Assembly: GCA_023129325.1 (NCBI GenBank)
Contig: JAGMCI010000012.1
Coordinates: forward strand, 37,850-101,849
Reading direction: 5' to 3'
Length of the DNA stretch: 64,000 nt
From: a candidate division WOR-3 bacterium
GTDB taxonomy: Bacteria; Hydrothermota; UBA3073; JACQXS01; JAGMCI01
The notes beneath the pieces are model-generated. The model worked only from the letters and a program-made list of their open reading frames with translations, did not search any database and had not been told where the DNA came from. Shown here piece by piece: positions 2,944 through 53,860 of the stretch. A program made the position numbers and the translations under genes. Position 1 is the first letter of the stretch. Each line of letters opens with the position of its first letter.

Positions 2944-5900
2944 ATATGAAACAGGGTTTACTTAAACATCAACCGCACCTGCCCGACATCCTGCAGGCGG
3001 GGATGAACGCAGACACTAATTTAGACTACAGACTGAAGACTATAGACCAAAGACTGATAAAGAGAGGTCTTTTGTCTTTGGTCTTATGTCTCTATCCGTG
3101 GTTTTTAATGGCTCAAAACTTGCAAGTAAATCTATATTCAGGAAATTACAAGATTCAAGAACTGAAAGATAGTGAGCACCAGATACTTATGGAAAACCTG
3201 CCCGACGGTAAGGCGAGTGGGTTTGTGAACTCTTTAATTCCTGGCAAACCGATACTTCCAGCCAAAACATATATGATTGTTATACCACCAGGAGTAGAAA
3301 TTCAAAGAGTAGATATTCAGGGCAGGAAGGTTGAGCTACCAGGGAAATATAATATTAAACTATCTCCACCTATTTTCCCAATAATAAGTGGTGATGCAAT
3401 AGCAAGCTATTGCACTCCGGGAGTGCGTTATTTATATCCAAAAGAAGCAGGCAAATACATTGGAAGAGGTGGTTTAAGAAAATATGAGTTCATAAAAGTA
3501 GTTTTCTTTCCTTTTACCTATTGCCCCGAGACACGGAAATTATTTTATACCTCCACCATAACAGTATCTATAGATTATACTCCAGGAAGTGGAAAGTGGG
3601 AAGTGGGAAGCCTGCCTGCCCCGCTCCGACAAGCGAAGCGGGACGGAGACGGCAAGGCAGGTGGGAAGTGGGAGGATATTGCAAGGGATTTGCTTATAAA
3701 TTATAATGAAGCTCAAAAATGGTATAAACCTTTTGTTGAAGCAGAGGCTTCAACCTACCCTAATTATGATTATGTAATTATTACCACTCCTTTTTGCACT
3801 ACTGCTATTGACACTCTTATAAAATGGAAAAAAAGAATGGGTTATAAGACAAAAGTTGTTACCAAAGACTGGATAGATATCAGTTATCTTGGTAACGACA
3901 TACAACAGAAAATAAGGAATTTTTTGCGAGATAAATATCTTGATTGGGGGATAGAATATGTGCTTATAGTTGGTGATACTATAATCCCAATGCGAACATG
4001 CGTAACATTTAATAATGCACACGGTCCAGGAGGCTGGCCGCCTGGATGGTATACTATACCGACAGACTTATACTATGCAGAACTTACTTATCCTGATAGC
4101 TTATCGTGGAATCTTGACGGAGATAATTATTATGGTGAGGTATGGGAATGGGCAGGGGATACAATCATTCCTGAGGGTGATGATGCTCCTGATTATGTCA
4201 CAGATGTCAGACTTGGCAGGATTCCCTGGAGTGACCCGGCGAAAATCCGTCACATATGTGAAAAAATAGTTTCCTTTGAGCAAAATACAGACCCTTCTTA
4301 TAAAAAAGCCTCACTCCTTGCTGGAGGTATGATATTTTACGAAAACGAGGATAATTACTATCATAAATATGATGGTGCAGATATTATGGAAGCATTGATA
4401 GACAGTGGTATTGTAGAGCCATCGCTTGCTGTTACTTTGTATGAGAAAGCAGGTCTTAGACCAAGTTTATACCCATGCACAGCTCCTATTACAATGGATA
4501 ATATAATAAATTACTGGAATAATCGTGCCATCTTTTATGAATTTAACCATGGAGGAGTAGACAAATTTTTTAGTAGAATCTGGGCATCGGACGATGGCGA
4601 CAGTATTCCAGAATCAAGTGAAATAACAAGAAACTATTTACTATACTCCAGCTCTGCGCCACAACTTGATGATACTCATCCAGCAGTTGGATTCTTGATG
4701 TCATGCGATTGCGGGAAACCTGAGGATGGTAATAACCTTGGAGCTGCACTTTTAGAGAATGGGAGTGTAAGCATAGGAGCAGCAACACGGGCAGCATGGA
4801 CTTCTGGAGAGTGGATGGTATATTATTTTTTTAAAAACCTTTTAAGAGACACAAGCTTAACAGGTAGTAAAGTGGGAGATGCGTTTGATATGGCAAGAAT
4901 TGAATATATGCAACTTAACCCCTGGTGGCTTAATACCTATACTATCAATCTTTATGGTGAACCATCATTGAACCATTTTGGTATTACACTGAAACCTAAA
5001 CTTACAGTATTTCCTGATACACTCAATTTTGAAATCACTATGACAGAGAACAGGAAACAGAGAGCTGATTCAATATACTACCACTCAATCTACCAAGATT
5101 TAGATTGTTACTCCTACCAGTATGATAAAGCTAAAATTGCTACTCGTTTTACCCCTCTTCAAAATCCATGCTGGGTAACTGGGTGCGAAATATTTGTTAT
5201 GCCAAAAGATACAATGCCATCGATTCCAGATACTGTCTTTTTGTATGGTGCGGATAATGATACTACGCCTGGAGAAATTCTCTCCACCAAAACATGGAGC
5301 GCCCCAATTTATGCTCCTGATTTCTGGACAATAACCGTTTCTTTTGATTCCTCTTCCCTGCCCGACGGACGGCAGGCGGGTATGATAAGAAGTGGCGATT
5401 TCTGGATTGGATACAACAGTATCACTGATGGGATTAATAATATCTGTGTATGCTCTGATATGACAATTGATAGTAGTGGACAAAATAGAAATAGGTATAC
5501 CTTTGACGAGACCTGGGCTGGTATTGACTATGACTGGGGCATCACAGCATTTGTTGATTACAGAATACCTGAAGATACCGCCATATTGTGGATTAAAAAT
5601 GATGGAAATGATATTTTAAATGTCTCAAGCATTAATCCCGCACCATATGGTGCGGGACAAGACTGGGTTGTATCTATAACACCAATTTCATTCCAAGTAT
5701 CTAAAAAAGATTCTGAGGCAGTTACTGTAATTGTCAGTTCTAAAGGACTCGGCAAGGGTATCTATCATGACTCACTTAAGATTATCTCCAATGATTCTGA
5801 TAAAAATCCATATTATGAGCCTGTAAAGTTTGTAATTACTGATAGTCAAATTACACCCCCGCAGGTGTCTCAATTGCTTGATTCAATAATCCCAAACCCT

Positions 5901-6143
5901 ATTCAGCCTGGGAGCCAAATTATATATTGGCTTCCAAAATCAAGCTGGGTCACACTGAAAATCTATGACTCAATTGGCAGACTGGTGCGAGTTTTAATAG
6001 ATGAGTATGAACAAGTCGGACGGCATACTATTTCGTGGGATATGAGAAATTCATACGGCACCCGGCTCCCAAGCGGCGTTTATTTTTATAAATTAAAAAC
6101 ACTTAATAAAAGCTTAACAAAAAAACTTATTTTAATTCGTTAG
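2940..6143 (+). CDS. Peptidase C25 (gingipain-like cysteine protease) with propeptide domain and T9SS C-terminal sorting domain. It carries in-frame GC-rich repeat insertions. The true start is uncertain; the signal-like segment LLSLVLCLYPWFLMA lies ~40 aa in.
   Basis: Catalytic-domain region YDYVIITT...YVLIVGDTIIPMRTC. Paralogous to 53954-57532. C-terminus IYDSIGRLVRVLIDE...GVYFYKLKT is a Por_Secre_tail-type CTD. Repeat insertions lie at 2976-3003, 3585-3678, 3735-3760 and 5356-5380. Confidence 0.75.
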   Translation: MNMKQGLLKHQPHLPDILQAGMNADTNLDYRLKTIDQRLIKRGLLSLVLCLYPWFLMAQNLQVNLYSGNYKIQELKDSEHQILMENLPDGKASGFVNSLIPGKPILPAKTYMIVIPPGVEIQRVDIQGRKVELPGKYNIKLSPPIFPIISGDAIASYCTPGVRYLYPKEAGKYIGRGGLRKYEFIKVVFFPFTYCPETRKLFYTSTITVSIDYTPGSGKWEVGSLPAPLRQAKRDGDGKAGGKWEDIARDLLINYNEAQKWYKPFVEAEASTYPNYDYVIITTPFCTTAIDTLIKWKKRMGYKTKVVTKDWIDISYLGNDIQQKIRNFLRDKYLDWGIEYVLIVGDTIIPMRTCVTFNNAHGPGGWPPGWYTIPTDLYYAELTYPDSLSWNLDGDNYYGEVWEWAGDTIIPEGDDAPDYVTDVRLGRIPWSDPAKIRHICEKIVSFEQNTDPSYKKASLLAGGMIFYENEDNYYHKYDGADIMEALIDSGIVEPSLAVTLYEKAGLRPSLYPCTAPITMDNIINYWNNRAIFYEFNHGGVDKFFSRIWASDDGDSIPESSEITRNYLLYSSSAPQLDDTHPAVGFLMSCDCGKPEDGNNLGAALLENGSVSIGAATRAAWTSGEWMVYYFFKNLLRDTSLTGSKVGDAFDMARIEYMQLNPWWLNTYTINLYGEPSLNHFGITLKPKLTVFPDTLNFEITMTENRKQRADSIYYHSIYQDLDCYSYQYDKAKIATRFTPLQNPCWVTGCEIFVMPKDTMPSIPDTVFLYGADNDTTPGEILSTKTWSAPIYAPDFWTITVSFDSSSLPDGRQAGMIRSGDFWIGYNSITDGINNICVCSDMTIDSSGQNRNRYTFDETWAGIDYDWGITAFVDYRIPEDTAILWIKNDGNDILNVSSINPAPYGAGQDWVVSITPISFQVSKKDSEAVTVIVSSKGLGKGIYHDSLKIISNDSDKNPYYEPVKFVITDSQITPPQVSQLLDSIIPNPIQPGSQIIYWLPKSSWVTLKIYDSIGRLVRVLIDEYEQVGRHTISWDMRNSYGTRLPSGVYFYKLKTLNKSLTKKLILIR
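3585..3678 (+). repeat. Family A element inserted in-frame in the C25 peptidase, flanked by GTGGGAAGTGGGA direct repeats.
   Basis: …ggaagtggaaagtgggaagtgggaag-[51-bp element]-gtgggaagtgggagg… The reading frame is kept open and encodes SGKWEVGSLPAPLRQAKRDGDGKAGGKWE. Confidence 0.85.
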
Positions 6144-6155
6144 TTAACGAGCCCT

Positions 6156-7412
6156 TTGATGAAAAGAAACATAGAAAGACACGCCTGCCTGACGGCAAGG
6201 CAGGGATATAGGCACGGAAAGATACACCCGCCTGCCCGCTTCGCCTGCCTCGCCCACGAGTCAAGGCGGGCCAAAGCTTCAGCGAGGCGAGCCATCTGTC
6301 GGGTAGGGAAATTTAATTCCTATCTTATTTTCTGGTCCATACGGATATTGGGAGTAATATTTTTAATCTTTCCTATCCGGATTTATGGAAATGAAAAACC
6401 CGATACTTCTTTATGGCACAAGTACGAAATTTTACCTAAAAAGGGATTGTTCAAAATAAAGAGAGAGTATTCATTTCCACTTCACGATATTCTTGGCAAG
6501 GAAAAAATTTATGCCCGATGCATTGCAGCTGCACCAATAGGAGGATTAAGAGAAGAAATTCAAATTTCACTTGTGAAAATCCCTTTAAAGAAAAAGATTA
6601 TCTTCCCTCTTGCTTTTGAAGAACTTCCTATTTCTGAATTGCAAAGAGAAAAGGAGCTTGAAATTTCAAAATCCGTAATTGAGGAGCAACAAGAACTCCC
6701 AAAACCAATAAAAATTGAAATTACACCGTTGGAAATAGAGAGACCTATAATTGCAGAAATCTCTCCACCAGCGAAAATAGAAACCAAGAAGATAAAAATA
6801 ACTGCTATTAAAGCCCTTGGAGTAATCAAAGAAGAAAGCTCAATTCCCCTTTTGAGAGAAGCTTTAAAAGAAAAAGAATGGAGTATAAAGCGTGAGGCTG
6901 CCGGGGCTTTAGCAGAACTTGGCGATACGATAGGACTTTCTTTTCTCAGGACAGCTCTTGAAGAGAAAGAAACAGCCAAGAAACTTGAAATCATAAGTAC
7001 TCTTGGAAGGATAGGAGATATTGCTTCAGTTCCGTTTTTAAGAAAATTGTTAGACCATAAGGAGTGGGCAGTAAGACGGGAAGCGGCTTTTGCCCTCTCG
7101 AAAATAGGAGACAAGACTGGTCTTTCATTCTTGCAAAGAGCAGTTGGTTCAGAAGACTCTAACAAAAAGATTGAGGCGGCGATGGCATTGGCAGAAATAG
7201 GAGATGACACTGGACTCCCGGAATTAATCTGTCAACTGACAGACAAGGATAGTCATACATCTGTGAGAATCGCGGCTCTTAAATCCATTGGAAAAGTAGG
7301 AAAAAAGAATATCATTCCTGTATTAAATGAGATAATGAAAAAAGACCCTGAACTCATAGTTAGAATTATAGCTTCAGAAAGTATATTAAAGATTAATAAA
7401 AGGAGGAAATAA
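6156..7412 (+). CDS. HEAT-repeat membrane protein, paralogue of the two flanking genes but without a zinc ribbon. The annotated 5' ~150 nt are a GC-rich repeat element, so the start is uncertain.
   Basis: TM-like ILGVIFLIFPI. C-terminal ~200 aa are tandem HEAT units (ALGVIKEESSIPLLREALKEKEWSIKREAAGALAELGD...). The first 50 codons translate the repeat element at 6183-6309. Confidence 0.55.
   Translation: MMKRNIERHACLTARQGYRHGKIHPPARFACLAHESRRAKASARRAICRVGKFNSYLIFWSIRILGVIFLIFPIRIYGNEKPDTSLWHKYEILPKKGLFKIKREYSFPLHDILGKEKIYARCIAAAPIGGLREEIQISLVKIPLKKKIIFPLAFEELPISELQREKELEISKSVIEEQQELPKPIKIEITPLEIERPIIAEISPPAKIETKKIKITAIKALGVIKEESSIPLLREALKEKEWSIKREAAGALAELGDTIGLSFLRTALEEKETAKKLEIISTLGRIGDIASVPFLRKLLDHKEWAVRREAAFALSKIGDKTGLSFLQRAVGSEDSNKKIEAAMALAEIGDDTGLPELICQLTDKDSHTSVRIAALKSIGKVGKKNIIPVLNEIMKKDPELIVRIIASESILKINKRRK
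6183..6309 (+). repeat. GC-rich element, family B, long form ~125 bp.
   Basis: The reverse complement of its 3' half matches 8214-8270 almost exactly (CCCTRCCCGACWGATGGCTCGCCTCGCTGAAGCTTTGGC…GGCGGG). A partial relative lies at 37544-37614. Confidence 0.8.
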
Positions 7413-8212
7413 TGAAATGTCCTTATTGTAAACACGAGATAGCCAATGATTGGTTATATTGTGGCAATTGTGGCATAAATATTAAAAAAGAAAATCAAGC
7501 AAAAAAAATCATCCAGTCGGGACTTGAATTTGAACATCAATTTGAGTATACAAAAGCTTCAAACGAATACAAAAAAGCACTTGAACTCGGTGTCCCTGAC
7601 AAAGAGATTCTTGAACTTCTTGAAAAAGTCACAAGGAAAGAACAAGCTATTATAAATTGGATGGAAAAAGGGAAGGAGTTCTTATCAAGTCGTGAATGGA
7701 AAGAAGCAATCCGAGCTTACGAAAATGTATTGAAACTAAAGCCCGTGGATGGTTATGTTAAAACAAATTTATTGCTTGCCAAAAGAAACCTTGCCCGTTC
7801 ACATAAACGTATCGGGATACGGATAACAGTTATTGTGATAATTATAGGTATAGGAACCTTTGGCTGGTATAGTTATACGCAAACTCCAAAACAAGTTGCT
7901 CAAAAGACATTGAAGCAAGGAGTTTTATCTCAAGACCTTCTTGCCAAACAATACGCAATTGAAGCTCTGGGCGGACTCAAGGACAAAAGATTTTTCCCTC
8001 TTTTGAAAGATGCTTTAAAGGATAAAAATCCTGCCATAAGAACTACTACAGCTAAAGCTCTTGGAGAATTTGGTGATTCTGCAGCTATTCCATTTTTAAA
8101 GGAGAGTTTATTTGATAAAGAATGGCAGGTAAGATATGCGGCAGCTCAGTCTTTGGCATTAATGGGGGACACTTCTGGAATCCAACTTTTAAAACAGGCA
8201 TTGAAAAGGTAA
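7412..8212 (+). CDS. Zinc-ribbon/TPR-like/TM/HEAT-repeat membrane protein.
   Basis: MKCPYCKHEI...YCGNCG zinc ribbon. TM segment ITVIVIIIGIGTFGWYSYT. Three HEAT units. The segment following its TM matches that of 1360-2943 (FYSYTNS / WYSYTQT), indicating paralogy. Confidence 0.6.
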   Translation: MKCPYCKHEIANDWLYCGNCGINIKKENQAKKIIQSGLEFEHQFEYTKASNEYKKALELGVPDKEILELLEKVTRKEQAIINWMEKGKEFLSSREWKEAIRAYENVLKLKPVDGYVKTNLLLAKRNLARSHKRIGIRITVIVIIIGIGTFGWYSYTQTPKQVAQKTLKQGVLSQDLLAKQYAIEALGGLKDKRFFPLLKDALKDKNPAIRTTTAKALGEFGDSAAIPFLKESLFDKEWQVRYAAAQSLALMGDTSGIQLLKQALKR

Positions 8213-12135: not shown

Positions 12136-12360
12136 ATCAATTAAAATTTTACACTTCTTTTACCTGTTGTCAAGTTTTTTAGTATTTAAAGTTCAAAAAT
12201 ATGGAAAGTAACGATTGTATCGTTGTTTGCTTCGTTTTTTACTCCAAAGATTGCAGACTTTAGGATAAGGCTTTAGCCTTGCTAATGGATTGCTCAGTTT
12301 TGCTAATTAACCAATTAACTAATTCACCAATCAACTATTTTAACCCTCTGTGCCCTCCCT

Positions 12361-12464: not shown

Positions 12465-13112
12465 ATGATACGCACTCATCGCACAGGAATAGTTAAGGGA
12501 TTTTTGCTCTGCCTTTTATCTATTATAATAATTCTTGCTGCCCTTTCCTGCATTTACTTTTTCCATATCTATTCATTCCTCTCATATGAAAAGATATTTA
12601 AAACAGATACCGTCGTTGTTGAGGGCTGGATAAGTAATTCTGAGATGAGACAATCAGCAAATAATATACTCTCTAATAATGTGAAAAGAGTAATAGTGCC
12701 CGGTGATAAAGCTGAATTAGCCCTAATACATTATCCAGTAAATAATTATGCTGATATAGGACGTTTGCGTCTAATTGATTGTGGGGTAAATGAAGAAAAA
12801 ATTATTACTTGCCCCTTTGAAACCAAACGGAATCGTACATTAAACGCTGCTGTATATGTGAAAAAAATAATTCAAAAAAAGGGTATAAAGTCATTTATTA
12901 TTTTCACCGAGGATGTGCATGCCAGAAAAACTTATGTCTCATATAAAAAGGTATTTGGGAACAAATATAAAATTGGTGTTATGCCCATACCTAACGATGT
13001 ATTTGATAATAAAAATTGGTATAAATCAAGTGAAGGGATGAAAACAGTAATTACTGAATCAATTGCATATATATATTTAGTTTGCTTCCAGAGATTTAAG
13101 CACTGGGAATGA
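12465..13112 (+). CDS. DUF218 (SanA/YdcF/ElyC-like) membrane-anchored protein.
   Basis: N-terminal TM. The core resembles SanA (…KSFIIFTEDVHARKTY vs SanA …DFIIITQRFHCERAL). Own promoter TTGACT-17-TAAATT at 12427-12455. Confidence 0.55.
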   Translation: MIRTHRTGIVKGFLLCLLSIIIILAALSCIYFFHIYSFLSYEKIFKTDTVVVEGWISNSEMRQSANNILSNNVKRVIVPGDKAELALIHYPVNNYADIGRLRLIDCGVNEEKIITCPFETKRNRTLNAAVYVKKIIQKKGIKSFIIFTEDVHARKTYVSYKKVFGNKYKIGVMPIPNDVFDNKNWYKSSEGMKTVITESIAYIYLVCFQRFKHWE

Positions 13113-13223
13113 AGAGACCGCACTCTTTTTAATTTAAAGTATCTCACACGAGTCCGTGACTTTAAGGCTTTGGAATGGAGTTAAGAAGGTTTTTAAATTT
13201 TTTTTAAAAATTGCGAAAAAAAC

Positions 13224-13251
13224 TTGACATTAATAAAACTGATGATAAAGT
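13224..13251 (+). promoter_or_regulatory. Sigma70-type promoter (TTGACA-16-TAAAGT) with an A-rich upstream element, serving the three-gene cassette.
   Basis: aaaaaaacTTGACAttaataaaactgatgaTAAAGT. The same aaaaaacTTGACA architecture recurs at 15278, 52266, 57716, 61117, 38728 and 12427. Confidence 0.45.
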
Positions 13252-13277
13252 AGTCTACAGGAAAGTATTCAAAAACA

Positions 13278-13997
13278 ATGCCCTTAAAAACCCAAAAACT
13301 TGTACCCTCTAAAAAATTCCAGAGGGGATTTCAAATAGAAGCCATATATAATCTTGTAAAGCAGGACAAATATGATAGATATTCATACACTCAAAGACCT
13401 TCATATATGGATTCCAATCTTCCTTTGTTTGTGGCATCACCTGAAACTTCAGAGAAGGTATTTACATTTCTGGGTAAAACAGTAGGATTCCAATTTGGTG
13501 CTATTATTCTTAAGGAAGTCAGTGAGTATCTGACCAAGAAATATTCTCTTCCAGAAGTAAATCTTCTACGTATTAAAAAAGGAGAAATACAAAAATATAA
13601 AGATTTCCGTGGGCATTTAGAGAATTGCGACAAGAAAATGATTTCTTGGATAGTAAAATCTATCACCGAGGAGTTTGAAAGAACAACAAATAAGCTTTCT
13701 CTCCGTAAATTTGATGAATTCACACAATTTTGTAATATATGCAATGATTTTATTGAATGGTTTAAAGACATAAGAGCCCAAAGCTCCAAAGATGAAGTTC
13801 TTGCTGACACTTATTCCTTGTTACACAAGGTCACAAAACACTATAGCAGTAGACTTAATAAGAATAACCTAATACATTTTGGCTTTGCCGAGAAAGTTGA
13901 TTTTGTTTTAGAGAGTTATGAAATTTCTGAAAGCTGGAGTCCTCAGAGAAAAGAAATAAAATTTACTTCTACTAAAATATCATTTCAAGGTATATAA
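13278..13997 (+). CDS. Hypothetical protein, first gene of a three-gene cassette.
   Basis: 239-aa ORF with no motif I recognise. Promoter TTGACA-16-TAAAGT at 13224-13251. AT-rich codon usage. Confidence 0.4.
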   Translation: MPLKTQKLVPSKKFQRGFQIEAIYNLVKQDKYDRYSYTQRPSYMDSNLPLFVASPETSEKVFTFLGKTVGFQFGAIILKEVSEYLTKKYSLPEVNLLRIKKGEIQKYKDFRGHLENCDKKMISWIVKSITEEFERTTNKLSLRKFDEFTQFCNICNDFIEWFKDIRAQSSKDEVLADTYSLLHKVTKHYSSRLNKNNLIHFGFAEKVDFVLESYEISESWSPQRKEIKFTSTKISFQGI

Positions 13998-14003
13998 TAG
14001 GCA

Positions 14004-14459
14004 ATGGCTAAAGTAAAGTCTACTATAGAACTCATCGAAAAGGAATCGCTTGATATAAAAGTTAAGAGAATAACTCTGGAGAAATTGAGTTTTGAGAAAA
14101 AGCATAGTTTTAATGATAGCACATCTACTAAATACCATTTGGAAATTGGTGGTACTGTTTTGAAAAAGTCTGACAAAAATATGACAGCATGTTTACACAA
14201 ATTTGATGTGGAGTTTTTCGAGACCAAAAAGAAAAAGGCACCCTTTTCACTTTCTGTTGTGTTAAAAGTAATTTATGAGTACAAAGAAGTACTAACTGAC
14301 AAGCAGATAAAAAACTTTCTTAGAAGTTATGCCATACCAATAATATGGCCCCATGCTCGTGAAATCATAAGTTCACTCACGATACGTGCAGGATTCCCAC
14401 CTTTATTTCTCCCAATCCTTAAATTACCTGCAGAAATGACGATTACTAATTCAAAGTGA
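14004..14459 (+). CDS. SecB-like chaperone.
   Basis: Matches E. coli SecB in two regions: VKRITLEKLSFEKK versus IQRIYTKDISFEAP, and YAIPIIWPHAREIISSLTIRAGFPPLFLP versus [30 protein letters not shown]. Lies 6 nt after the upstream gene and overlaps the downstream gene by 4 nt. Confidence 0.65.
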   Translation: MAKVKSTIELIEKESLDIKVKRITLEKLSFEKKHSFNDSTSTKYHLEIGGTVLKKSDKNMTACLHKFDVEFFETKKKKAPFSLSVVLKVIYEYKEVLTDKQIKNFLRSYAIPIIWPHAREIISSLTIRAGFPPLFLPILKLPAEMTITNSK

Positions 14460-15190
14460 GTATTTCTTTTCAAAAAGCTCCTAATAACCACGATAGCTTG
14501 AAAAACCAGACTATTCATAACATATGTGATTTTATCATTGATAATCCAGATTATTTAGATGAACTTGATCAATTACTTTCCAAGAAAAACTTAGAAAAAA
14601 TAGGTAAATATATAAATTACTTTAGACGAAGACAAAGGCAAATAACTTATAAGGCTGCTACCTACATTGATTTAATAGAGGAACTTTGTAATCTTAATAA
14701 TAATATCATTATACACGTGGAAGCTGCGATCTTAGAACTTCTTCTTGAAAAGCTTATAAGACGACAATTGAAACCCCACAACCCACTTATTGAAACCGAA
14801 TGTTTCGTCTTCTATAATGGCAACAAGATAGAAATTGGAGAAGCTGGTGAAGGAAACATTGATGTATGTGCATATTTAGCAAGTCATAATCGTGGTTTTT
14901 TCTATGAATGCAAAATAAATGTGATTAACTTCTTATTTCCACCTTACAGGTCTACTATGAGCAGGAAAGACAGAAAGTGGATGAATTCTTTCGATCATAT
15001 ACCCTCTGAAGTGGGAGATAACAAGATATTGTTGAGACTTGCAACTATGTACAAAAGAATTGGATGTGAAAATGCTGGAGTAGATACAAAATTAAAAGAG
15101 AGTTGGCTAAATGTAAAAGCTTTCTGTTATGAGGATATTGAATTTCTTCTCAGCAGCGAGGCCGAAATTGGAGATTTTAGCCCCCTCTGA
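14456..15190 (+). CDS. Hypothetical protein with a possible PD-(D/E)xK nuclease-like motif.
   Basis: E(98)...GNIDVCAY...FYECKIN spacing fits a helix-E / strand-D / strand-ExK restriction-endonuclease-like core. This is inference from motif spacing only. Confidence 0.35.
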   Translation: MSISFQKAPNNHDSLKNQTIHNICDFIIDNPDYLDELDQLLSKKNLEKIGKYINYFRRRQRQITYKAATYIDLIEELCNLNNNIIIHVEAAILELLLEKLIRRQLKPHNPLIETECFVFYNGNKIEIGEAGEGNIDVCAYLASHNRGFFYECKINVINFLFPPYRSTMSRKDRKWMNSFDHIPSEVGDNKILLRLATMYKRIGCENAGVDTKLKESWLNVKAFCYEDIEFLLSSEAEIGDFSPL

Positions 15191-15419
15191 ACAAAAGTTA
15201 TCCTGAAACATTTTAACTTTTCTTTATTCTCACACAATCCAAAATTCAGCAGTTTTTATTAAATGTTGAAAAAAAACTTGACAAATAAAAAATTTGTGTT
15301 AAAATTACAAAAGGAGGTAATATAAGAGTCTTTTAAGGTATGTGAGTTTATGGAGTGCATTACCTTGGTAATGCAACTAAATTGACTTATATGCCTTATA
15401 AAGACTCTATTTTTATATT

Positions 15420-15903: not shown

Positions 15904-16266
15904 ATGAGTAAAAAGAAAATTTCTGGAAATGATTTGGCAGAGCGTTTACTTGACTTCGCAGTGAGAGTCATTAAACTTGTAAATACTTTGCCGAAGACAG
16001 CTGTGGGGAAACATGTTGGAGGACAGCTTATGCGTGCGGGAACATCTGCAGGCTCGAATTATGAAGAAGCATGTGGTGCTGAATCCAGGCCTGACTTCGT
16101 TCATAAATTAGGTATTGCACTAAAGGAACTCAAAGAATCTCGCTTTTGGCTACGGGTCATTCACCGGGTTGAACTTATTGCTCCTCAACGTGTTGAGTCA
16201 CTGCTTCAGGAGTGTGAAGAATTATGTGCTATTATCGCAAAAAGCATCCTTACAGCAAAAAGGTGA
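15904..16266 (+). CDS. Four-helix-bundle protein of the 23S rRNA-intervening-sequence protein family.
   Basis: 120-aa helical protein; GTSAGSNYEEACGAESRPDFVHKLGIALKELKESRFWLRV matches the TIGR02436 family signature. A ~50-bp copy of its 5' end recurs at 35960-36010. Confidence 0.55.
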   Translation: MSKKKISGNDLAERLLDFAVRVIKLVNTLPKTAVGKHVGGQLMRAGTSAGSNYEEACGAESRPDFVHKLGIALKELKESRFWLRVIHRVELIAPQRVESLLQECEELCAIIAKSILTAKR

Positions 16267-40417: not shown

Positions 40418-41689
40418 ATGATAGGAATAATATTAGTATTTCTTGTCAGTGACACATTAAAAATAAACCTTGACCAAGCCAAGGAGATAGCACTTAAAGG
40501 TAACCCAACATATCAAGTGCAGACACTTTCTCATACATACAATAAATTAGGACTTTATGAGAACTTGGCTTCAGATATACTTAATCCAGCTGTCGGTATT
40601 ACATACTCTGAAGCAACATTTGGTGATTACTCTTATCCTTCGTCACCTGTCTCGCCGAGCCAAGGCGGGAAGGGCTATAATTTTAGCTTCTCTTTAAACC
40701 AGCCGGTATTTGATTTTGGGAAAGCATCCTCAATACTACAAAGCAAATTTAGCACCAATGCCTCTTTAGCATCAAGCTGGGAAGCTGAAAACCTGCTATA
40801 TTATCAAGTAGAAGGACAATATCTTACTGTCCTTAAAGTAGAAAAATTACTTGGAATGCGTAATAAGGCTATTGAACGAGCAGAAGAAAATATGAGATTC
40901 GTAACTAAAAGATTAGAATTGGGAAAGGCGTCAAGATTAGACTTTTTAAATGCAACAGTCTATCTTAATCGTGCTAAGCTTGATTTATCTGATACCCGTA
41001 AAAATTATACTATTGCTAAAAGATTATTATTAAATATACTTGGGCTTAGGCATCAATGTGAACTTTTGCTTGAACCAGTTGAGATTGAAGACGGAAAGTT
41101 TGAGTTACCAGAACTAAATATACTCATAACAACAAGCATTGAAAATAGACCAAAAATTAAAGCCGCTTATGAAGAAGTTAAAGAAGCACGACTTGGAGTT
41201 TGGAGCAGTTTCTTTTCATTTCTGCCCCAAATATCGTTCAAATGGTCCTGGAACTATAATACAGAGAATTTCCCAGACAAATTTTCAACAATAAGAAACG
41301 GGGCAACAAAGAACACAGGGTGGTATGCAACTGCGAATCTAAATTTATTTTCCTATCCATTTGAAGTTTGGAAGACAAAGACCATCCTTGACAAAACCAA
41401 TTTGAATCTGTTAAATGAAAGACTGATTGTAGTTAAAGAAGTTGAAGAGGCAAGGCTTGATTGTCTTACTATGAACGAAAATCTAAAACTTGCCAAAAGT
41501 ATGTTTGAAGCTGCCAGGGAGGGGAATGCACTCGCTAAAACACAGTACAAGCTCGGATTGATACCAATCCTTGACTTGTTTCAAATAGAAACAGACTTGT
41601 TGGACGCCGAGGCAACCTATATTTCTGCCCTGTATGATTATAAACTTGCAAGAACTAAACTCAAGTATGTAATTGGAGGTAAACTATAA
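40418..41689 (+). CDS. Outer-membrane efflux protein (TolC-like OMF). It has an in-frame GC-rich insertion at 40644-40674.
   Basis: Two OEP-type repeat halves with coiled-coil and beta segments. RBS aaggagg 7 nt upstream. The insertion encodes [11 protein letters not shown]. Confidence 0.7.
   Translation: MIGIILVFLVSDTLKINLDQAKEIALKGNPTYQVQTLSHTYNKLGLYENLASDILNPAVGITYSEATFGDYSYPSSPVSPSQGGKGYNFSFSLNQPVFDFGKASSILQSKFSTNASLASSWEAENLLYYQVEGQYLTVLKVEKLLGMRNKAIERAEENMRFVTKRLELGKASRLDFLNATVYLNRAKLDLSDTRKNYTIAKRLLLNILGLRHQCELLLEPVEIEDGKFELPELNILITTSIENRPKIKAAYEEVKEARLGVWSSFFSFLPQISFKWSWNYNTENFPDKFSTIRNGATKNTGWYATANLNLFSYPFEVWKTKTILDKTNLNLLNERLIVVKEVEEARLDCLTMNENLKLAKSMFEAAREGNALAKTQYKLGLIPILDLFQIETDLLDAEATYISALYDYKLARTKLKYVIGGKL
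40644..40674 (+). repeat. Family C element (CCTGTCTCGCC…CAAGGCGGG), in-frame in the TolC-like gene.
   Basis: Second copy at 58727-58756 in the BNR protein. Shares its core with 37561-37590. Confidence 0.7.
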
Positions 41690-41783
41690 GAGGATAAATG
41701 CCTAAAAGTCCAAAATGCCTAAAAAAGAATTTAGGAATTTAGGTGTTTAGGTATTTAGGTATTTGGAAGTAAAGGAGGGACTT

Positions 41784-42971
41784 ATGCGTAAAAAGAAAAA
41801 GCTAATTATTATTGCTGGGACGATGGTGCTTATTCTTATCATTATCTTACTTAACTTGAGAAAAGGTAAGGGCAGTAATAAGGTAGACGCTCTTGTTGTT
41901 AAAAGGGATAATATAATCTCTAAAGTGAGAACTGAAGGCACACTCAAGGCTCTTAATCAGGTCCAAATTGGTAGTGATGTTATGGGCAGAATTATCAAAC
42001 TAAAGGTGAAAGAGGGCGTTAGAGTTCGTAAGGGAGATGCCCTCTGCATTATAGACCAGAGCACCTATGTTGCCAGGCTCAAACGAGCAAAAGCTTCACT
42101 GAACTTTACACTTGCCAAACTTACTAAGGCAGAAGAAGACCTGAGACGCAATAAAGAACTCTTTGAAAACAAGCTTATCTCTAAAGAACAATATGAAGAA
42201 GCGAAACTGAATTATGAGATGATAAAGGCAGAGGCTGAATCGGCTCAAGAATCTTATAACGAGGCTAAAGAAAACTATAACAAGACAATCATAACCTCAC
42301 CAGTGGATGGTGAAGTAGTGCAACTCAACAAAGAGGAAGGCGAGATGGCTATTATGGGAACTATCAATACACCAGGCTCTGTTATAATGACAATCGCAGA
42401 ACGCTCAAAGATGTTTGTAAAGGCACTTATTGATGAGACAGAAGTAATAAAAATTGTCCCCAAACAACTAGTTACCATTACAATAGATGCATTACCAGAT
42501 ACTACTTTTAACGGCAAAGTAACCAGGATTGGGGGTATTCCAGAAAGCTATGGAACAGAGGAAGCCGTTAACTTTCCAATTGAAGTTGAAATCTTGGGAA
42601 CCCATGAAAAACTATATCCCGGCATGTCAGCTACCTGTGAGATTACTGTTGGTGTTAAAGATTCAACTCTCGTTATCCCTTATTCGGCACTGGGAAGAAA
42701 AAAGATACAAGGGAAAGAACAAGATGTAGTTCTTTTATCAAAAGGCAAAAAGGTAAAACAAACCTTAGTAAAGTTAGGATTAACAGGTGAAAAAGGAGTT
42801 GAAATTATAGAAGGCGTAGCTATAAGTGATACAGTTCTGATAGGTCCCTACAAAATACTTAGAAAACTAAAAGATGGTGATAAAGTAGAAGTAAAAATCA
42901 AAGAGATATCAGAAGTTGAGAAAAAGAGGGGCAAAAGACGAGACAAAGTCAAAGTCAGAGTTACAATGTGA
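41784..42971 (+). CDS. Periplasmic adaptor / membrane-fusion protein (HlyD/MacA family).
   Basis: N-terminal TM, biotinyl-lipoyl-like motifs and a long coiled coil. The start is taken at MRKKKK, which follows the RBS aaggaggg. Confidence 0.8.
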   Translation: MRKKKKLIIIAGTMVLILIIILLNLRKGKGSNKVDALVVKRDNIISKVRTEGTLKALNQVQIGSDVMGRIIKLKVKEGVRVRKGDALCIIDQSTYVARLKRAKASLNFTLAKLTKAEEDLRRNKELFENKLISKEQYEEAKLNYEMIKAEAESAQESYNEAKENYNKTIITSPVDGEVVQLNKEEGEMAIMGTINTPGSVIMTIAERSKMFVKALIDETEVIKIVPKQLVTITIDALPDTTFNGKVTRIGGIPESYGTEEAVNFPIEVEILGTHEKLYPGMSATCEITVGVKDSTLVIPYSALGRKKIQGKEQDVVLLSKGKKVKQTLVKLGLTGEKGVEIIEGVAISDTVLIGPYKILRKLKDGDKVEVKIKEISEVEKKRGKRRDKVKVRVTM

Positions 42972-52015: not shown

Positions 52016-52265
52016 ATACTATTTAATTTATAAATGTCAAGAAAAAACGCTTTTGGGTGCAAGATTTTGTTTATTTTAAGAAATGTTATATCCTATAAGT
52101 ATAGATATATCAATATCTTGTATCTCAAAGGAGGGTATTATAAATTTTGTTTTATGTGCTATGAAAGTATAAACTCTCCAGACTTGACCCCATTCATGGA
52201 ACCTGCTCTGGTTGATACTCTGTTGTTGTTTTTGTAGAAAACTTTTTAAAAAAACTTGACAAACT

Positions 52266-52336: not shown

Positions 52337-53860
52337 ATGTCATACAAAGGTATTTTTGCCACATTATTTCTCTTTTTTAGCCTAACGACTCTTCTCCACG
52401 GGGATGAGGAAAAGATAGTCTTCGCGGTTAAGACTGACGAAGACAACTCTGTTATATATACTATTAACCCAAATGGAACTGGGTTGCAGGAACTATTTTC
52501 ATGGACTGGTGAGTTGGTAGATAGTATGGGTAGGATACACGGCTTAAGGATTTCGCCTGGTGGTGAATACATTGCATTCGCATCCAACCACGATAGATGG
52601 TATTCTCCTTTCGAGTGGAATGTCTTCCATATTGCTTCAGATGGTAGTTGGTGGGATATGGATACTCCAGATGCGGCCGCTGGCTGGTATAATCCACCGG
52701 GAGGTAGAGGTATAGTGCACGGTTATATTACAGGTTTTGGGTCTCCTGGCACTCATGCCTGGGTGACTATTGAAGGTTATCCAAATCTCATTACGACTAA
52801 TACCTCGGGTTACTACGAGGTATCCAATGTGCCTGAAGGGTCTCGTTTTATAACAGCATTCTCATTTGATTACGGTTGGTATGGATATACATCTGTCAAT
52901 GTCATAGCAGATATGTCAGTTGAGGCGCCAACATTTGGGACCACTGAGGATAACTGGGCTCGGATAAGTGCGGATGCACCTGCATGGTCGTCAGATGCAA
53001 ACTATATTTATTGGCAAGCACTTGACGAGTCAGTTCTGAAAACACCAAGAGGGGGAGATAGCTGGACAGAGATTTTTGAGGGTCCTCCAACTTATACTGA
53101 CCGCTCTACTATTGACATTTCGCCTGTGAATGGGAAAATAGTTTATACCTGGAGCGTTTGGGACCCCCACTCTGGCGGAGTTTATACTGCCAATCCAGAT
53201 GGTAGTGATACCACTAAAATTTTTGATGACGAGTGGGCTTATGCAAGTTCAGTATATTATCCACGCTGGTCACCAGATGGCGAGCGAATCGCTTATGTCA
53301 GCTTTCAAGACGACAACAACGCTGCTGTTGTTATTGATAAAAATGGTGCCTTTGAGACTTATTTTTATTATTCAGGTTATTATCTCCACATAGGAGGCTG
53401 GTCACCGAACAACAAATGGTTGGCAGTGGTAATTGAACCTATGGAGAGTAAAACTGACAGTGCATATATATGTCTTGTTAAGCCAGACTATTTAGACTCA
53501 TCCGTATGCATTTTGGGATTAGAAAATATAGAAATCGGTATTGACTGGGGTATCCTGAATCCACCAGGTGTAGAAGAAGAGACAGACGACAGATATCAGA
53601 TGTCAGATATCAGATTGCAGGTTTATCCCAATCCATTTATTAAGGAGACAATAATTCAATATACAATTTCAAATCAAAGTGAAGATGTTACACTCAAAAT
53701 ATTTGATGTTGCGGGCAGGATTGTTGAGAAGATAACTGTTGATGAACATACAGGAAATAGGACTTTATGCTGGAGACCTGATTTACCAACAGGCATCTAT
53801 TTCATTCACCTGGTATGCAAAGAGATAAATAAAACATTAAAAGTGATTAAGTTGCAGTGA
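52337..53860 (+). CDS. Secreted TolB-like beta-propeller (PD40 repeats) protein with T9SS C-terminal sorting domain.
   Basis: Signal peptide. PD40-like repeats (…YTINPNGTG…, …ISPGGEYIAFAS…, …WSPDGERIAYVS…). CTD VYPNPFIKETIIQY…LKIFDVAGRIVEKI…GIYFIHLV. Promoter at 52266-52296. Confidence 0.6.
   Translation: MSYKGIFATLFLFFSLTTLLHGDEEKIVFAVKTDEDNSVIYTINPNGTGLQELFSWTGELVDSMGRIHGLRISPGGEYIAFASNHDRWYSPFEWNVFHIASDGSWWDMDTPDAAAGWYNPPGGRGIVHGYITGFGSPGTHAWVTIEGYPNLITTNTSGYYEVSNVPEGSRFITAFSFDYGWYGYTSVNVIADMSVEAPTFGTTEDNWARISADAPAWSSDANYIYWQALDESVLKTPRGGDSWTEIFEGPPTYTDRSTIDISPVNGKIVYTWSVWDPHSGGVYTANPDGSDTTKIFDDEWAYASSVYYPRWSPDGERIAYVSFQDDNNAAVVIDKNGAFETYFYYSGYYLHIGGWSPNNKWLAVVIEPMESKTDSAYICLVKPDYLDSSVCILGLENIEIGIDWGILNPPGVEEETDDRYQMSDIRLQVYPNPFIKETIIQYTISNQSEDVTLKIFDVAGRIVEKITVDEHTGNRTLCWRPDLPTGIYFIHLVCKEINKTLKVIKLQ

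Follow-up and report, generated by a model that had tools for sequence, protein, structure and literature searches.

A SecB-like chaperone gene set between a variable first gene and a nuclease-like gene: a candidate toxin-antitoxin-chaperone module shared by candidate division WOR-3 and C. difficile mobile elements

We analyzed a stretch of 64,000 nucleotides (nt) from a candidate division WOR-3 bacterium (assembly GCA_023129325.1, contig JAGMCI010000012.1, positions 37,850 to 101,849; hereafter the window) in which three tightly spaced genes, here called A, B and C, encode a fast-evolving protein, a SecB-like chaperone and a protein with a nuclease-like signature, respectively. The same arrangement recurs in seven sequence lineages, phages and plasmids of C. 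difficile among them, and this recurrence, together with the genomic contexts of the triad, supports the suggestion of an earlier reading of these letters (the original prediction) that the genes could form a chaperone-dependent addiction or defence module. Our preferred account, in which we place about even confidence, is of a toxin-antitoxin or abortive-infection module that depends on its chaperone and belongs to the toxin-antitoxin-chaperone (TAC) type, with the gene order antitoxin-chaperone-toxin and a nuclease as the toxin.

The open reading frames (ORFs) and the junctions of the tight operon described in the original prediction were reproduced, with all three genes co-oriented on the forward strand. 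Gene A (13278-13997; 239 amino acids (aa), ATG start) encodes the fast-evolving first protein, the proposed labile antitoxin and chaperone client, whose divergent tail of alternating aromatic and hydrophobic residues (residues 200-239; 13875-13994) is a candidate segment of the chaperone-addiction kind. After a gap of 6 nt, gene B (14004-14459; 151 aa, ATG start) encodes the SecB-like protein, assigned below to the CmdC-like, TAC type of chaperone, and overlaps by 4 nt (GTGA) with gene C (14456-15190; 244 aa), the effector candidate with a PD-(D/E)xK-type signature, whose GTG start is backed by conservation of the N-terminus (M..F) across all seven homologues. As in TAC systems, a PF02556 chaperone thus shares one operon with its partners, at spacings of 6 and -4 nt and with one promoter motif.

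That promoter, the cassette's own TTGACA promoter of the original prediction, was recovered as a motif match rather than a mapped start. The region 13190-13251 on the forward strand holds an A/T tract, a -35 element TTGACA (13224-13229), a 16-nt spacer with TG and the TG-extended -10 element TAAAGT (13246-13251), and a consensus scan gave 10 of 12 consensus matches. Allowing at most one mismatch, AAAACTTGACA, an A-tract plus -35 word, has 11 matches in the window against 3.2 expected, and its four exact copies (12168-12178 on the reverse strand; 13219-13229, 15273-15283 and 52251-52261 on the forward strand) are all intergenic and lie upstream of purF, the cassette, the next gene and an ORF at 52337. 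Because of this enrichment and placement, AAAACTTGACA appears to be an ordinary promoter type of the WOR-3 host. Beyond A/T runs, no conserved inverted repeats that could serve as an operator were found around the promoter. The promoter word also precedes the orthologous cassette on a second contig (L001), where AAAAAAACTTGACATT(A/G)ATAA is kept upstream, and similarity between the window and L001 reaches the C stop codon and goes no further; the mobile unit therefore comprises the promoter and the three genes.

The SecB-like nature of the middle gene was borne out by a match of B to Pfam PF02556 (SecB) at E 3.4e-10, over the gathering score and spanning residues 16-136. The original prediction had also allowed that B might be the SecB of housekeeping export, accompanied by two passengers unrelated to it, a possibility assessed here with the curated cutoffs of the NCBIfam equivalogs TIGR00809 and NF00439x. 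B reaches 16-38 bits on these models, the cutoffs of which lie at 102-277 bits; the best score, 37.8 bits, is for a model with a cutoff of 180, and TIGR00809 gives 32.4 against 102.8. The best PADLOC match of B is PD-T4-9_C (CmdC, the chaperone of the CmdTAC defence system; E 3.3e-12), and the CmdC model is the top defence-database match for every triad SecB-like protein scanned (E 3e-12 to 1e-4). Among PHROGs, B is closest to phrog_20189, the family of ORF38 from the C. difficile phage phiCD119.

Like the canonical SecB proteins of E. coli and H. influenzae, B is covered over nearly its whole length by the Pfam SecB domain and keeps the IWP(H/Y)ARE...GFPPL motif; unlike them, it falls below the equivalog cutoffs, is basic (net charge +10) rather than acidic, lacks the C-terminal helix and tail, comes from a non-proteobacterial source and has two conserved genes as its linked partners. 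B aligns to solved SecB structures only in the helix region around IWPHARE...GFPPL. Its alignment to E. coli SecB stops at residue 131 of 155, and B ends 12 residues after the GFPPL region, so that the final ~24 residues of E. coli SecB have no equivalent in it; triad SecB-like proteins end 1-12 residues after GFPPLxLxPL. A housekeeping role would agree with the NCBI annotation of B as 'protein-export chaperone SecB', with the lack of any second SecB-like ORF within the 64-kb window and with the ability of some TAC chaperones to complement an E. coli secB mutant (PMC5105189), but it is at odds with the low equivalog scores, the basic charge and the missing C-terminal region. Nor does it explain the same two partner positions in seven lineages from different phyla and mobile elements: synteny of B with unrelated genes in relatives, which the original prediction had named as evidence pointing away from a module, was not what we found, as B instead travels with its two partners. 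Furthermore, a solitary SecB is essentially a proteobacterial trait, and SecB genes outside the alpha-, beta- and gamma-proteobacteria mostly accompany toxin-antitoxin pairs (PMC4257090). We consider the housekeeping explanation scarcely credible and conclude from its sequence that B is a chaperone of the TAC type and not a housekeeping SecB.

Co-occurrence of the triad in other genomes, which the original prediction had put forward as a check, was found in seven sequence lineages with the same gene order (the window, contigs L001, L018, L019, L023 and L031, and a C. difficile-type group), a sample of few lineages with several short contigs. A member of the C family directly follows the SecB-like gene in every lineage, a linked first gene is present wherever upstream DNA exists, and the chaperone gene is the middle one in all six lineages with a visible upstream gene; the L018 contig starts inside the chaperone gene. 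Spacings within the triads range from -4 to +28 nt; the two WOR-3 copies have the 4-nt overlap of B and C, and in the other lineages these genes are separated by 1-28 nt. Across lineages the proteins have diverged to 23-39% identity for B and 21-34% for C. Alignment of C profiles with hhalign related the WOR-3 pair to the L018/L019 pair at 96% probability (E 4e-9) and to a viral trio at 84.5% probability (E 7e-6), and the L018/L019 pair to the viral trio at 98% probability (E 7e-14).

These lineages came from several searches. A word-indexed search of 5.8 billion protein clusters returned one orthologue per protein, at 64-70% identity and all on the 4.8-kb contig L001, which retains the gene order of the window and the GTGA overlap. 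When 1.84 billion representatives were searched in full by HMMER with the C pair, two more proteins, P0009 (E 2e-4) and P0010 (E 4e-4), were found, and C matched P0009 by BLASTP at 2e-11. P0010 is encoded on L019 after a 183-aa gene and a SecB-like gene (Pfam 2.2e-10, CmdC 5.8e-10), and P0009 on L018 after the 29 3'-terminal codons of a SecB-like gene; both contigs are very AT-rich. A scan of IMG/VR with a four-sequence SecB-like alignment added ten further loci, nine of which carry the triad; on L024 the contig ends inside the C gene, leaving only the first two genes complete. The IMG/VR loci represent three lineages, namely L023, L031 and a group of eight loci, and their C homologues score 5e-17 to 3e-9 against a profile built from the first four C sequences. 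Other routes were unproductive: tblastn of the window chaperone against deposited phages, a profile scan of genome contigs with the SecB alignment, a viral-contig scan with the WPHAREII DNA motif and a viral-contig scan with the C alignment gave no match, and the 16 loci from a metagenome scan for the WPHAREII motif were all chance matches.

The neighborhoods of the triad differ in kind. On L001 it lies between a type II methyltransferase gene (PADLOC 2.7e-13) with an NgoFVII-like restriction enzyme gene upstream (61-1998) and a helix-turn-helix (HTH) gene downstream (4342-4764) whose best PADLOC match is the type VI retron HTH protein (3.4e-14) and within which the contig ends. On L018, P0009 is followed by a hairpin and by an N-terminal fragment (1166-1342) that matches BrxA colinearly (Pfam E 0.0012) up to the contig end, which suggests that a BREX locus adjoins the triad there. 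The 36.9-kb IMG/VR contig L031 has genes for a Rep3-type initiator, ParA and a small unknown protein adjoining the triad (5122-7885), and the element looks like a plasmid or phage-plasmid. The group of eight corresponds to C. difficile phage phiCD119, in which the triad is ORF37, ORF38 and ORF39+40 and sits between holin/endolysin and integrase/repR genes, that is, in the lysis-lysogeny accessory region; intact copies occupy the same site in 46-53-kb C. difficile plasmids, where RefSeq names the three products hypothetical, protein-export chaperone SecB and hypothetical. Such surroundings (restriction-modification, BrxA-like, prophage accessory and Rep3/ParA genes) are typical of mobile conflict systems and are of the sort known from mobile elements, defence islands or plasmid addiction, and by these contexts the module is a horizontally mobile one of which the window holds a chromosomal copy.

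The phiCD119 triad is a homologous instance with the same order and tight spacing, of which the B and C counterparts are ~24-28% identical to the window proteins; unlike in the window, its first protein, which is not detectably homologous to A, ends in YALAA, and its C gene is frameshifted. In the phiCD119 genome (L033, NC_007917.1; 5001-5706), ORF39 and ORF40 are one C gene split by a 1-bp insertion, and in the prophages L025 and L026 unrelated DNA has taken the place of the 3' part of C, starting just ahead of the ECK codons. An intact C. difficile copy lies at 40763-42481 of NZ_CP149728. C alone is damaged in three of nine C. difficile-type copies, by two independent lesions, with the first gene and B intact in all nine. 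This pattern suggests that C may be harmful and fits a toxin role weakly; it is not significant. The PHROGs of the phiCD119 proteins (phrog_27061, phrog_20189, phrog_22416 and phrog_32696) are all labelled 'unknown function', and no function for the triad is reported in the literature searched. A 2013 survey (Sala et al.) listed the phiCD119 SecB as solitary and found it to cluster with the TAC chaperones of the M. tuberculosis complex (PMC3581621).

The occurrence of the module on phages, on phage-like C. difficile plasmids and on the Rep3/ParA contig is also what one would see if it had no part in conflict, C being a nuclease that processes the DNA of the phage or plasmid as it recombines, replicates or is packaged, B a chaperone for the folding or assembly of C, A an accessory protein and the WOR-3 copy a remnant. 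PD-(D/E)xK enzymes commonly serve phage recombination, which counts in favor of such a role. We nevertheless judge it improbable, given that the triad occupies the lysis-lysogeny accessory region rather than the replication or packaging modules, that C is dispensable, being truncated or frameshifted in phiCD119 and two prophages, and that the module is also found beside restriction-modification genes, BREX-like genes and chromosomal sugar genes.

In the seven-lineage alignment of C only M1, F5, F26, E94, E115, K124, D136, E151, C152 and K153 are invariant, and the candidate catalytic core spans 14735-14914 on the forward strand, from E94 (14735-14737) through E115, K124 and D136 (14861-14863) to E151-C152-K153 (14906-14914). 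The members share a Glu in a predicted helix (within RRGDxxE in most of them), a hydrophobic strand, (I/V)D(I/V/L), a turn of 14-19 residues that varies in length (14 in the window copy) and E-C-K. This residue order and spacing are typical of PD-(D/E)xK nucleases, and the order (E)...D...(D/E)xK is kept by the invariant E94, D136, E151 and K153 in seven lineages at only ~21-34% identity. A low-confidence secondary structure places a helix at 86-108 and strands at 112-120 and 148-156, an order compatible with an alpha-beta-beta-beta core. The C family therefore resembles the PD-(D/E)xK superfamily in its helical Glu, hydrophobic strand, invariant (I/V)D(I/V/L) and invariant E-C-K, and differs from it in having no significant sequence or profile match to a Pfam or PDB nuclease.

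None of the seven C members has a significant Pfam or PADLOC match, and searches of PDB with two-, four- and seven-sequence profiles gave nothing below E 0.03 for either A or C. Weak matches to DUF7226, PXA, sorting nexin-25, PtuB, SduA and DUF4200 were each confined to one sequence or lineage and were treated as chance; for DUF7226, the L001 orthologue has no match at E<=0.1. The assignment is drawn from the motif, by which C probably belongs to the PD-(D/E)xK nuclease superfamily. The E...IDV...ECK arrangement noted in the original prediction thus holds up as a set of residues invariant in seven lineages, whereas the fold that it implied gained no support from AlphaFold models with a predicted local distance difference test score (pLDDT) of 34-36.

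The first protein behaves differently. As the original prediction stated, A carries no recognized motif, and we found no Pfam, NCBIfam or PADLOC family for it. It has a single orthologue, P0002, at 65% identity, and is weakly related to the first gene of L019 (BLASTP 4e-5 over residues 117-182; hhalign 8e-4); beyond these two relationships, homology among first proteins was not detectable between most lineages. A low-confidence model predicts A to be mostly helical with a C-terminal beta-hairpin. The A tail diverges between the two WOR-3 orthologues, yet IKF...SF segments are kept. Across lineages the first proteins have 183-246 aa, are encoded 6-26 nt before the chaperone gene and carry a poorly conserved tail with alternating aromatic residues. 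Variability of this kind is the pattern expected of an antitoxin or a specificity partner.

In all four low-GC lineages the first protein ends in [LI]AA (...DDYALAA, ...FYYLAA, ...FQCIAA and ...VPLIAA), the phiCD119 ending being YALAA; the genes with these ssrA-like ends lie at 3144-3740 on L027, 111-713 on L023, 3204-3809 on L031 and 367-918 on L019. YALAA is also the end of the E. coli ssrA tag. In known TAC systems, CmdA has a C-terminal Ala-Ala that serves as ClpX degron, and Val-Ala is the end of M. tuberculosis HigA1 (preprint 10.1101/2024.02.24.581848). The C proteins have an acidic or structured C-terminus and no tail comparable to that of the first protein. We infer the putative client role of the window A protein from its position and its relatives, because its own tail has no Ala-Ala end and only a slight aromatic enrichment.

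Both WOR-3 first proteins give weak matches to the HEPN end of the PADLOC CARF_HEPN model (E 0.002 and 0.004), one C-family member gives a weak match to the Pfam Polbeta nucleotidyltransferase family (E 0.028), and part of the C core resembles hG[GS]...DxD. These matches would be accommodated if the roles were reversed, with A a HEPN-type RNase toxin and C an antitoxin like a minimal nucleotidyltransferase (MNT) in a HEPN/MNT-like pair that has acquired a chaperone. However, A has only Rx7H, outside the Rx4-6H spacing, and its L019 homologue has no R...H at this place, and the two WOR-3 matches are not independent, as the proteins are 65% identical. On the side of C, only one of the first four members has 'GS', and both WOR-3 copies carry Asn in place of the first Asp of DxD, whereas D136, E151 and K153 are invariant in all seven. 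A nucleotidyltransferase reading of C was rejected on these grounds (GS and the first DxD Asp not conserved, ExK conserved), and we regard the HEPN/MNT scheme as highly improbable.

Under the TAC account, A, B and C would be co-transcribed from the AAAACTTGACA promoter, as the operon structure and the promoter motif indicate. C, with its conserved motif, would act as a stable PD-(D/E)xK-type nuclease, with the corresponding fold and activity, and would be toxic when free, and A would bind and neutralize it. By analogy with HigA and CmdA, A would be unstable, with its C-terminal tail held by a SecB-like tetramer of B; this presumed instability is backed in relatives by the ssrA-like LAA/IAA ends and not in the window copy. 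B might then be titrated, for instance by newly made phage structural proteins, as CmdC and HigC are, or synthesis would stop after loss of the element, upon which A would be degraded and C would cut nucleic acid, so that growth would stop or infection would abort. In CmdTAC and HigBAC, the trigger is that a capsid protein or the tail protein gpV titrates the chaperone (PMC11618068; preprint 10.1101/2024.02.24.581848). An antitoxin-chaperone-toxin order would keep the client gene beside the chaperone gene together with the common antitoxin-first arrangement.

The closest described counterparts share some of these traits. CmdTAC (PD-T4-9), an E. coli anti-phage system, is likewise a tricistronic operon with a SecB-like chaperone, and its antitoxin CmdA is a labile protein whose C-terminal region is disordered and whose Ala-Ala ClpX degron recalls the Ala-Ala ends of the low-GC first proteins. 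In contrast to the triad, where the chaperone gene is in the middle, CmdTAC has the order toxin-antitoxin-chaperone; CmdT is an mRNA ADP-ribosyltransferase, whereas C has a D...ExK signature and gives no match to the CmdT or CmdA model; and the first protein of the triad is larger (183-246 aa), its window copy having no Ala-Ala end. M. tuberculosis HigB1-HigA1-SecB(TA) and E. coli HigBAC and MqsRAC also consist of a SecB-like protein dedicated to a neighboring pair on horizontally acquired DNA, with a client that has a variable, aromatic-rich C-terminal extension and is encoded just upstream of the chaperone gene. They differ in that the pair is HigBA, MqsRA or HicAB, its antitoxin being an HTH protein and its toxin an RNase, and in that the chaperone gene comes last.

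Several observations weigh against the TAC account. Neither hallmark of the described systems, in which the chaperone gene comes last and the partners are HigBA, MqsRA, HicAB or CmdTA, is present here. A, C and their homologues in the six other lineages match no toxin or antitoxin family in Pfam, NCBIfam or PADLOC; A has no recognizable antitoxin or DNA-binding domain, and C no match to a known nuclease family in Pfam or in the PDB sequence and profile searches. The window A protein ends in ...SFQGI with no Ala-Ala, and aromatic residues are only slightly more frequent in its tail than elsewhere in A. AlphaFold2 runs on two-sequence alignments gave unusable models, with pLDDT 33.9 for C and 36 for A, and Foldseek comparison of both models with PDB returned noise (best E 0.19 and 2.1). 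The two lesions in C are not statistically significant (~0.17 by chance). As to mobility of the window copy, no tRNA gene was found in the 64-kb window by a tRNA scan, an Rfam scan was also empty, and the check for integrases and transposases covered the genes adjoining the cassette only. An empty site was not found either: exact look-ups of the flanking genes gave only cassette-carrying contigs, and a profile scan of genome contigs with the protein of the upstream 215-aa gene gave no match.

A further objection concerns the partner on which the chaperone acts. Because B and C form a strictly conserved pair, overlapping in the WOR-3 copies, B could act on C rather than on A. The triad might then be a two-part switch in which a SecB-like tetramer of B restrains the nuclease C directly and the first protein, rather than an antitoxin, is an exchangeable specificity, sensor or decoy subunit that would set which phage or stress signal frees C. 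Only B and C are detectably homologous across all lineages; they overlap by 4 nt or lie close together throughout; and the divergence of the first gene resembles that of an arms race. We hold this arrangement to be possible but unlikely, as the ssrA-like ends and aromatic tails are on the first protein, encoded just upstream of the chaperone gene like known TAC clients, C has no comparable tail, and no precedent for the arrangement was found in the TAC literature searched. A bolder form, to which we assign a low probability, has the SecB-like tetramer gate the nuclease directly and the first protein, with its ssrA-like end, serve as an exchangeable bait or sensor instead of a classical antitoxin, in an immune switch undescribed for TACs that would be common in C. 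difficile prophages and extend to WOR-3.

If the TAC account is correct, the triad would represent a new architecture (antitoxin, chaperone, toxin) and add a new nuclease-type effector class to chaperone-controlled systems, for which the effectors named in the TAC literature searched are the RNases HigB, MqsR and HicA and the ADP-ribosyltransferase CmdT. It would also provide a function for the 'solitary' SecB of phage phiCD119. We found no description of the triad in the literature searched, the coverage of which was incomplete, so that a prior description is possible; neither Pfam nor PADLOC v2 has a model for the first or third protein. The presence of the triad in prophages and plasmids of the pathogen C. 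difficile makes the model testable in a tractable host and is relevant to phage resistance encoded by prophages and to the stability of the elements.

In the WOR-3 genome the cassette genes are locus tags KAW65_03210 to KAW65_03220 on a contig of 374,764 bp. The original prediction had described an AT-rich cassette, and its GC fraction (0.325) is indeed lower than that of the window (0.363). Because the flanking genes are equally AT-rich (0.324 for the upstream 215-aa gene, 0.34 for the cupin gene), this does not set the cassette apart. The upstream gene (12465-13112) had been labelled DUF218, a label not sustained by Pfam, which gave no match at E<=1; its product is membrane-anchored, and its C-terminal half resembles the DUF218/YdcF pattern by eye. 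The 229-nt intergenic stretch 3' of the cassette (15191-15419) has no predicted intrinsic terminator after gene C and no Rfam match, and carries the promoter word ~140 nt before the next start codon. The polysaccharide locus that had been proposed to adjoin the cassette was confirmed downstream by six gene types: cupin/dTDP-sugar isomerase, dehydratase, Poly_export/SLBB, Wzz, UDP-glucose dehydrogenase and flippase. Between the cupin/dTDP-sugar isomerase and dehydratase genes lies a gene of the four-helix-bundle, 23S rRNA-intervening-sequence type (15904-16266; Pfam 2.3e-20), which looks like an insertion into the polysaccharide locus because its GC fraction of 0.427 is above the 0.34-0.35 of its neighbors.

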